64,000 nt of DNA from Escherichia coli (GCF_041886205.1 NZ_CP169031.1); one strand, 5' to 3'. Counted from the stretch's first letter, positions 8,517 through 10,010 are shown. Notes: generated by a model not told the origin, from the letters alone. Made by a program: numbers and translations.

Positions 8517-8546
8517 AAATCCCGCCAATCGGCGGGATTTTTTTTA
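8517..8546. terminator. rho-independent terminator, bidirectional candidate
   Basis: Hairpin aatcccgcc/ggcgggatt followed by a T8 run, between convergent operons. Confidence 0.7.
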
Positions 8547-9326
8547 ATCGCTTTCCACTTCTTCCGTGGTGTTTTCTTGCAGTTCTGTTAATGCAGCACG
8601 ACATAGGTTCCGGGCATTGGCTATAGCCACACTTTTGACTTCATCCGTCATCGTGCAGGTAATGTACTGATCGAGTTCTTCAGCGCGGATGATGCTTTTG
8701 CCAATCAGAAACTGTATTTGCCAGAGCAGATCGGCATCCATAATCAGAATTTCTGCCGGGCCTTCAGGGCCAGCCGGGAAGGAAACATAAGACTGTTTGC
8801 CCAGGCCGACAACTCGACAACTTGCTTCAAGAATTGCGCGCTTGAGGTCTGACTTTATAACGGAAACAGGTTGATTTTCACCAGTGATTACGCCGTTGAC
8901 ATGGAAAGGCATGTAGCTTGAAATACGCTCCACTTTCCACACGCCAGCAAGCGATCCTTCATGCAGCACAATGGGGGTAACCGCGAGTTTCATCTCACCA
9001 TATAACTGCTGGCAGATAGCTGGATTGCTGAATACATCTAAAGGCTCACATTCAAACAGCGGCGCAATCTGCATGAGGTCCATCATGGTCATCCCTGGGG
9101 TACGAGCAGTAATGAATTTGCGCATACCAGTATCCATTGCGCTCCAGATTGCTACACCATGCTTTTTGCTCACTTCTTCAGTAAAGCCAAGGTGGCACAT
9201 GATGGTTTTTTCGATAGCCAGATCAGAGATAGAAACCTTTTCGCCAGGTACTCCATCATTATTGATGGTCACTTCGACACTCTGGCCATTACGCAGGCGG
9301 TATTGAATTGCTTTAGTATTTTCCAC
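8544..9326 (-). CDS. hypothetical protein (260 aa)
   Basis: Long ORF without a recognisable motif; tightly linked (6-nt gap) to the upstream ORF. Confidence 0.5.
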   Translation of the reverse strand: MENTKAIQYRLRNGQSVEVTINNDGVPGEKVSISDLAIEKTIMCHLGFTEEVSKKHGVAIWSAMDTGMRKFITARTPGMTMMDLMQIAPLFECEPLDVFSNPAICQQLYGEMKLAVTPIVLHEGSLAGVWKVERISSYMPFHVNGVITGENQPVSVIKSDLKRAILEASCRVVGLGKQSYVSFPAGPEGPAEILIMDADLLWQIQFLIGKSIIRAEELDQYITCTMTDEVKSVAIANARNLCRAALTELQENTTEEVESD

Positions 9327-9332
9327 GTTAAA

Positions 9333-10010
9333 TCACTCCACTACAAACCAGTCACATGCCAGTAAGTCGCCTACAGAAGGAACCCACGGAACAACTACAC
9401 CTTGTGCATTTTTTAAGGCGAAATAAGCACCATACGGAACGAGGTCGCCGGGGAAATATCCCTTAATGGCTTCCATTCGTGCCGGGTACTGTCCTTCAGG
9501 AACCAGCCAGCAGAATTGGTTTTCGCCGTTCCACCCGCGTCGAGCAACTTTCTTGCCATCCTTCAGCCACATCAGCGCGTCAGAAAAGTCGGCTGCTTCA
9601 AGGTCGATTTCTTCTTGTAGAGTAGCGATACCGCCAGCAGAAATAGTTACGTCCCTGGCTGTAATGAATGTCACCCCATTGTGACCTTCAATGCTGAGCG
9701 ATACCCCATTTTCGAAGAAGTCGTTAGTCCGACTAAAGCCTTCTTCAAATGTTTTTTCTGGTGAATAGGACAGAGATCCGTCCTCATAAGCGACCAGATA
9801 TCCGCCAATTTCTGGTCGGTGTTTTTGCAAAAATATTTTATCAACATGGACTTTTACCCCTTCTGGCTCAACGACTTCGATGTTGCAAAAAAGGACCACA
9901 TCCATTAGGGCGATAATTTCGATATCTTTGATTTTTGAGGCGCGAACTGTTTTATGGCTTTTGTATTTTGGAAGTGCCGTCAAAAGCTCTTTCGTTGTCA
10001 TGTTATTCAT
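9333..10010 (-). CDS. hypothetical protein with Trp-rich C-terminal domain
   Basis: Start chosen at MNNMTTKELL, which has a strong SD (AGGAAAG); C-terminus WLKDGKKVARRGWNGENQFCWLVPEG...DWFVVE. A longer alternative start exists at 10178. Confidence 0.5.
   Translation of the reverse strand: MNNMTTKELLTALPKYKSHKTVRASKIKDIEIIALMDVVLFCNIEVVEPEGVKVHVDKIFLQKHRPEIGGYLVAYEDGSLSYSPEKTFEEGFSRTNDFFENGVSLSIEGHNGVTFITARDVTISAGGIATLQEEIDLEAADFSDALMWLKDGKKVARRGWNGENQFCWLVPEGQYPARMEAIKGYFPGDLVPYGAYFALKNAQGVVVPWVPSVGDLLACDWFVVE

Follow-up and report, generated by a model that had tools for sequence, protein, structure and literature searches.

A probable nucleotide-signal sponge of the Tad2 family beside the accessory gene isaA in the variable hxr–ssb interval of a P1-like phage-plasmid

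Two genes between hxr and ssb

What are the two genes that lie between the darA operon and ssb in a P1-like phage-plasmid from Escherichia coli (GCF_041886205.1, NZ_CP169031.1), and what could they do for the element that carries them? The stretch analysed, 64,000 nucleotides (nt) in all and called the window here, is closest in this part to Salmonella phage SJ46, with 99.4% identity over 8000–10600 and a match to P1 that is only piecewise, and one plasmid in PLSDB (AP026465.1) is 100% identical to it across 8400–10300. Our analysis suggests that the gene nearer to ssb, open reading frame B (ORF-B), quite probably encodes a sponge for nucleotide signals that is expressed early, and that it sits with an accessory gene, isaA (ORF-A), in a variable slot between hxr and ssb. 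The pair is laid out as follows (lengths in amino acids, aa).

8544–9326, minus strand: isaA (ORF-A), 260 aa, GTG start
9327–9332, minus strand: 6-nt spacer from the ORF-B stop to the isaA GTG
9333–10010, minus strand: ORF-B, 225 aa, ATG start, a two-domain Tad2-family protein
9336–9599, minus strand: Tad2-like sponge domain (PF11195/DUF2829), ORF-B residues 138–225
9600–9719, minus strand: variable β-rich linker, ORF-B residues 98–137, low-confidence model
9720–9998, minus strand: Dec-like OB-fold N-terminal domain (N-domain), ORF-B residues 5–97, no Pfam family

An earlier note on this DNA had described a co-oriented pair of reading frames of 260 and 226 aa at 8544–10010, separated by 6 nt and placed between the darA operon terminator and ssb. 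Both frames are present there on the minus strand, the gap is the spacer listed above, and the position is right, as hxr ends at 8514 and is followed by a terminator hairpin, with ssb on the far side of ORF-B. The length of ORF-A stands at 260 aa, but that of ORF-B is 225 aa, the figure of 226 being its codons with the stop included. The same note had assigned no motif to either protein and named no P1 gene at this position, and neither statement holds: ORF-A corresponds to isaA of P1, and the Trp-rich C-terminus of ORF-B, which the note had correctly picked out (all five Trp fall within residues 148–221), is a textbook Tad2/DUF2829 domain. Its label of unknown function remains apt for IsaA and for the N-domain of ORF-B, but not for the Tad2 domain.

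Both frames are genuine genes rather than chance reading frames, since homologues at 40–50% identity keep their length and frame and the ratio of nonsynonymous to synonymous substitution (dN/dS) of isaA against P1 is 0.12. A longer ORF-B that would start from a GTG at 10178 (281 aa) was rejected, as none of 38 homologues uses this GTG and all begin at the methionine of MNN....

A Tad2 domain with conserved ligand contacts

ORF-B is 100% identical to cluster P0001 (453 member sequences), which carries the label 'DUF2829 domain-containing protein [E. coli]'. It matches PF11195 with 79.7 bits (gathering cutoff 25; E = 2.4e-22) over 72 of the 73 profile positions, and its sequence matches in the PDB are ModTad2 (6e-21, 45% identity), Tad2 8v3e, HgmTad2/AcrIIA7, SPO1 Tad2, and SptTad2. 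Tad2 proteins are tetrameric sponges that bind, depending on the homologue, 3′cADPR, histidine–ADP-ribose (His-ADPR), N7-cADPR, cUMP/cCMP, or CBASS dinucleotides, and those characterised act alone. The family homotetramer is built from two V-shaped dimers, with the pockets at the protomer interfaces.

The founding member, SPO1 Tad2 (Gp34.65, PDB 8SME), sponges 1′′–3′ glycocyclic ADP-ribose (gcADPR) against type I Thoeris, and contacts it through W25, N26, W73, and D79, plus S76 (10.1101/2023.05.01.538930). All five contacts are conserved in ORF-B, where W25, N26, W73, S76, and D79 align with W160, N161, W209, S212, and D215, respectively. W160, W209, and D215 occur in all 38 homologues, S212 in 37, and N161 in 28, with lysine in place of the last in nine. 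Although it belongs to the same Pfam family, SPO1 Tad2 is more distant from ORF-B (E = 1e-9), is a single-domain protein of 89 aa, and has no open second pocket (F44 stacking). The nearest solved relative of the domain is ModTad2 (also MoTad2), from a Myroides odoratus prophage (PDB 9EIB), which sponges both His-ADPR from type II Thoeris and cUMP/cCMP from Pycsar, in two different pockets. The insert between β2 and β3 of ORF-B is nearly as long as the one that forms the extra pocket of ModTad2, whereas the 137-residue N-terminal extension (OB domain and linker) and the enterobacterial phage-plasmid setting set ORF-B apart.

The β2–β3 loop (ORF-B residues ~170–192; together with residue 161, window ~9435–9530) falls into three length classes among the P1-like homologues. 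These classes, together with the change of N161 to lysine, may correspond to different ligand specificities.

Transcription and proposed role

The control of the pair can be read from the features on either side of it.

8520–8545, both strands: bidirectional intrinsic terminator hairpin, AAATCCCGCC-loop-GGCGGGATTT, by ViennaRNA folding
10011–10207, minus strand: ssb–ORF-B leader with a GAGGA Shine–Dalgarno sequence (10021–10017), conserved with the ssb–isaA leader of P1
10208–10696, minus strand: ssb, which opens the presumed operon
10716–10732, minus strand: Ossb (Op21), ATTGCTCTAATTAATTT, an operator for the C1 repressor that overlaps the promoters of ssb, the same as the P1 operator (NC_005856)

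The hairpin is GC-rich and folds with −21.6 kcal/mol on the plus strand and −17.1 kcal/mol on the minus strand (ViennaRNA), and is predicted to end both the darA–ddrB–hxr operon on the plus strand and an ssb–ORF-B–isaA unit on the minus strand. It was found by folding, a scan for consensus terminators having missed it, probably due to A/T runs that pair into the stem, so that pattern scans under-call this terminator. On the coding (minus) strand between ssb and the hairpin, the scan found no promoter or terminator pattern. Since the operator upstream of ssb is identical to that of P1 and no promoter or terminator pattern was detected in between, the simplest reading would be a single ssb–ORF-B–isaA transcript that is early and repressed by C1. 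Within it, the Shine–Dalgarno sequence of ORF-B lies 6 nt ahead of the ATG, and translational coupling from ORF-B to isaA is plausible because the Shine–Dalgarno sequence of isaA (GGAG, 9339–9336) falls within the last codons of ORF-B. A secondary hidden Markov model (HMM) match in the ssb leader, which might have been the relic of a Tad2 5′ end, was rejected (domain i-Evalue 120).

We propose that the Tad2 domain of ORF-B would most likely assemble as the homotetramer of its family, and that this tetramer would bind, without degrading them, nucleotide second messengers made by abortive-infection systems of the host, and so keep the host effector off. The likely ligands would be gcADPR or His-ADPR from Thoeris, while a second pocket could hold cUMP/cCMP from Pycsar or CBASS dinucleotides. 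Because the genes follow ssb under the control of Ossb, the sponge would be made early upon infection or induction and would be silent in the prophage.

Several points weigh against this proposal. The secondary contacts H71 and T78 of SPO1 Tad2 are V207 and G214 in ORF-B, and the ligand specificity of a Tad2-family protein is not readable from its sequence. The N-terminal extension could interfere with tetramer formation, co-transcription with ssb is a prediction from scans for sequence patterns and from the annotation of P1, and IsaA is found without Tad2 in P1 and at two distant loci (L013 and L014). Furthermore, a literature search found no binding or anti-defence assay of a Tad2 of the P1/D6 type or of a close homologue.

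Pathogenic E. coli, Shigella, and Salmonella frequently harbour P1-like phage-plasmids, and genes for resistance and toxins are part of what these elements carry. If the proposal is true, a sponge against nucleotide-signalling immunity would help to explain how they enter and persist across strains, and would be a second counter-defence beside the adjoining Dar anti-restriction operon.

The variable slot and the link between ORF-B and isaA

Eight hypervariable regions have been described in P1-like phage-plasmids (PMC9603915, PMC6906374), the hxr–ssb interval among them, and comparison with P1 and P7 places the pair within this interval. P1 has isaA–IS1–isaB in the slot, P7 and JL22 have a porin gene there, and SJ46 and the window have ORF-B–isaA. 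These differing contents, along with the finding that isaA of P1 is non-essential in a CRISPR interference screen (PMC10695390), bear out the suggestion of the earlier note that the pair is accessory, and neither gene is morphogenetic. In P7 (7249–8364) and JL22 (7257–8369), an outer-membrane porin gene (nmpC/ompD) stands in place of isaA/Tad2, so the slot accepts unrelated cargo.

Homology to P1 spans 10260–10007, a leader segment of 97.6% identity, and 9322–8544, and the 684 bp between them are represented by 6 bp in P1. As this indel runs from the ATG of ORF-B to codon 2 of isaA, P1 isaA uses the start codon and ribosome-binding site of ORF-B. P1 thus differs by a clean, gene-sized indel, which makes it a natural deletion control for ORF-B.

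The cassette occurs at a coverage of at least 80% in 110 PLSDB plasmids, whose hosts are E. coli, Salmonella, and Shigella. A DefenseFinder survey of 1,592 sequences of the P1/D6 group reported 'Tad2 AcrIIA7 (anti-Thoeris)' in 56% of the P1 elements and 93% of the D6 elements (10.1101/2025.09.12.675607). Tad2 in these elements was therefore already known from this survey, and database entries for the protein bear DUF2829 or Tad2 labels. ORF-B thus adds one more member to a family described before, in a region whose variability is known and next to isaA, a known orphan gene.

The pairing itself raises an alternative, in which ORF-B and IsaA form an obligate two-component anti-defence module, with IsaA, for example, inhibiting an effector or a sensor as the sponge takes the signal away, or regulating or chaperoning the sponge. 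D6 and D6-like plasmids keep the gene order and the same 6-nt spacing at a different position, next to cre/c1 and following a dUTPase gene, with an IsaA that is 49% identical (dUTPase, then Tad2-like, then isaA-like; D6 3267–4999 and the D6-like sequence L006 3808–5777). A third lineage keeps a Tad2-like gene, a 159-aa ORF, and an IsaA-like gene in this order, at 40–42% identity, and the overlap of the isaA Shine–Dalgarno sequence with the end of ORF-B also suggests coupling. However, isaA stands alone in P1 and in many plasmids, distant IsaA homologues follow dUTPase or unknown genes with no Tad2 neighbour, phages outside the P1/D6 group encode ORF-B-like proteins without IsaA, and characterised Tad2 proteins need no partner. 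The link between Tad2 and isaA is thus not obligatory, and we consider such a module unlikely. Under the proposal of a sponge that acts by itself, IsaA would be another dispensable early accessory protein, possibly with an anti-defence function, and not the obligate partner of ORF-B.

A further arrangement is seen in cluster P0056 (E. coli, 241 aa), in which a dUTPase is fused to a Tad2 part that shares 98% identity with the one in the window.

A Dec-like N-terminal domain shared with other sponges

The N-domain (residues 5–97) is modelled confidently, with a predicted local distance difference test score (pLDDT) of 83–94, while the linker (residues 98–137) is modelled poorly (pLDDT 45–51) and varies in sequence and length among the homologues. 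No Pfam family matches the N-domain. In a search of the PDB its profile matched Dec, the decoration protein of phage L (PDB 6E3C), with an E-value of 5e-5, and the hhalign comparison of the two (94.6%, E = 6.7e-8) covers Dec residues 2–90. The whole OB fold is aligned, including the motif GGYL...G.L.Y....FE..Y, which indicates homology between the N-domain and the Dec OB fold. In contrast, the C-terminal three-stranded β-helix stalk of Dec is unmatched, as the alignment ends at Dec residue 90 and leaves the ORF-B linker unaligned.

The N-domain is present in 36 INPHARED phages of many genera. A scan of IMG/VR, made with a narrow alignment and followed by local HMM and Pfam searches, found it as stand-alone proteins of 90–97 aa and fused to Tad2 (PF11195), Sequestin (PF21825), and Acb4 (PF13876); the fusions to Sequestin or Acb4 are on IMG/VR contigs L018 (3013–3888), L019 (2995–3519), and L046 (2926–3540). 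It also resembles the N-terminal domain (residues 1–86) of RyR Tad gp68 from Pectobacterium phage CB1 (12143–12694), with motifs in common (hhalign 86%, E = 5e-6). The latter domain was described in a 2026 preprint as an unknown fold, frequently encoded by an ORF of its own, which forms a domain-swapped dimer and is inactive alone against type I Thoeris. When the N-domain alone was used in a word-indexed search for homologues, only near-identical fragments came back. The possibility that the N-domain is Lockin was rejected, as Lockin is hexameric with a curved β structure and is absent from INPHARED, in contrast to the 36 phages above. In Ralstonia phage GP4 (1986–2485), a stand-alone homologue of 91 aa is encoded between the genes for the portal and the major capsid protein, beside a csrA-like carbon storage regulator gene, and is an odd accessory insertion in the head module.

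Fusions of Tad2 with further sponge domains are common, and Tal et al. found Sequestin by the same fusion logic, via Pfam (10.1101/2025.07.12.664507); the N-domain would escape this approach because it lies outside Pfam. Their fusions (Acb4–Tad2, Tad2–Sequestin, and Acb4–Sequestin) and RyR Tad gp68 resemble ORF-B in having several domains around a sponge domain, although both halves of the fusions of Tal et al. are proven sponges, whereas the N-domain of ORF-B is at most a candidate. In the literature searched, there was no description of the homology between the N-domain and Dec, of its recurrence across four sponge families, or of IsaA being placed repeatedly just downstream of a sponge gene. 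The leads that remain are thus this domain without a Pfam family, which recurs on sponges, and the orphan IsaA family.

In ORF-B, the N-domain would probably be a dimerisation or scaffold module, or a second ligand-binding module. A broader and more tentative idea, which we hold to be possible but on balance doubtful, is that it is a general anti-signalling module, used alone or on four unrelated sponge families either as a new ligand-binding sponge domain or as an oligomerisation device, with IsaA being a further new anti-defence protein.

The homology to a capsid-binding OB fold could also mean that ORF-B is virion-associated, with the N-domain bound to the capsid and Tad2 exposed on the particle or travelling with it. 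Some relatives carry the annotation of a capsid decoration protein, as does gp96 of Pseudomonas phage Dolphis, or are encoded among head genes, as in GP4, and the adjacent darA operon encodes head-packaged anti-restriction proteins according to the P1 annotation. Yet ORF-B lies in the early, C1-controlled ssb unit and in no late or morphogenetic operon, P1 and P7 build the same virion without it, and the stalk of Dec has no counterpart in the alignment. The N-domain also occurs on four cytoplasmic sponge families, and in RyR Tad it is a domain-swapped dimer, not a capsid binder. Finally, a sponge would need to be in stoichiometric excess over its signal, which packaging presumably cannot supply. 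We therefore regard a virion-associated ORF-B as very unlikely.

Least likely of all, to the point of being barely credible, is that ORF-B inhibits Cas9 as an anti-CRISPR protein of the AcrIIA7 type, an activity that was the earliest to be suggested for DUF2829 proteins. The hosts here are E. coli, Salmonella, and Shigella, in which type II CRISPR–Cas is not normally present. The relation of ORF-B to AcrIIA7 is one of domain homology only, and the AcrIIA7 activity is disputed in the literature, where Yirmiya et al. make the case for DUF2829 proteins being sponges against Thoeris and point out that binding to Cas9 had never been demonstrated.

The two domains of the proposed sponge also differ at the DNA level, with 40.2% GC in the N-domain part (9720–9998) and 52.1% in the Tad2 part (9336–9599). 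D6 shares 97% DNA identity with the window only over 9284–9655. The GC contrast and the limit of the D6 match indicate domain shuffling in ORF-B, by recombination at the domain boundary.

IsaA, a small orphan family

ORF-A is 94% identical, over its 260 aa, to residues 60–320 of the annotated P1 IsaA (YP_006486), and matches phrog_2326 (E = 2e-149), to which PHROG assigns no function. By this homology it is identified as isaA, the 'IS1 insertion-associated' gene of P1. It has the same place downstream of ssb and the same leader and ribosome-binding site, the difference being that in P1 the gene comes directly after ssb and precedes IS1 and isaB.

IsaA is an acidic protein (isoelectric point 4.9) with a two-domain α/β structure and a long C-terminal helix, for which AlphaFold2 gives a confident model (pLDDT 86.9, predicted template modelling score 0.83). 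Its invariant residues (Y9, G124, L126, W130, A164, G174, and D219) form no recognisable catalytic motif. No relatives were found in sequence and profile searches of Pfam, NCBIfam, PADLOC, and the PDB, and the sole match of the model in a Foldseek search of viral models (BFVD) was P1's own fragment. The literature on 1R7L and 4PUP held nothing informative for IsaA, and the genes adjoining distant isaA homologues gave no clues from Pfam. When 1.84 billion representatives were searched with a profile, only 34 proteins were recovered, and the family is tiny and confined to P1/D6-like elements.

The comparison with the window also bears on the annotation of P1 itself, in which RefSeq IsaA (NC_005856, 5225–6187, minus strand) is given 320 aa from an upstream GTG. 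The first 56 residues of this protein are the translated leader downstream of ssb, which in the window precedes ORF-B (10011–10178), and the IsaA homologues are 260–264 aa long and begin at MTAQ or MEN. The start of P1 IsaA was therefore probably mis-called, with its first 56 residues not translated.
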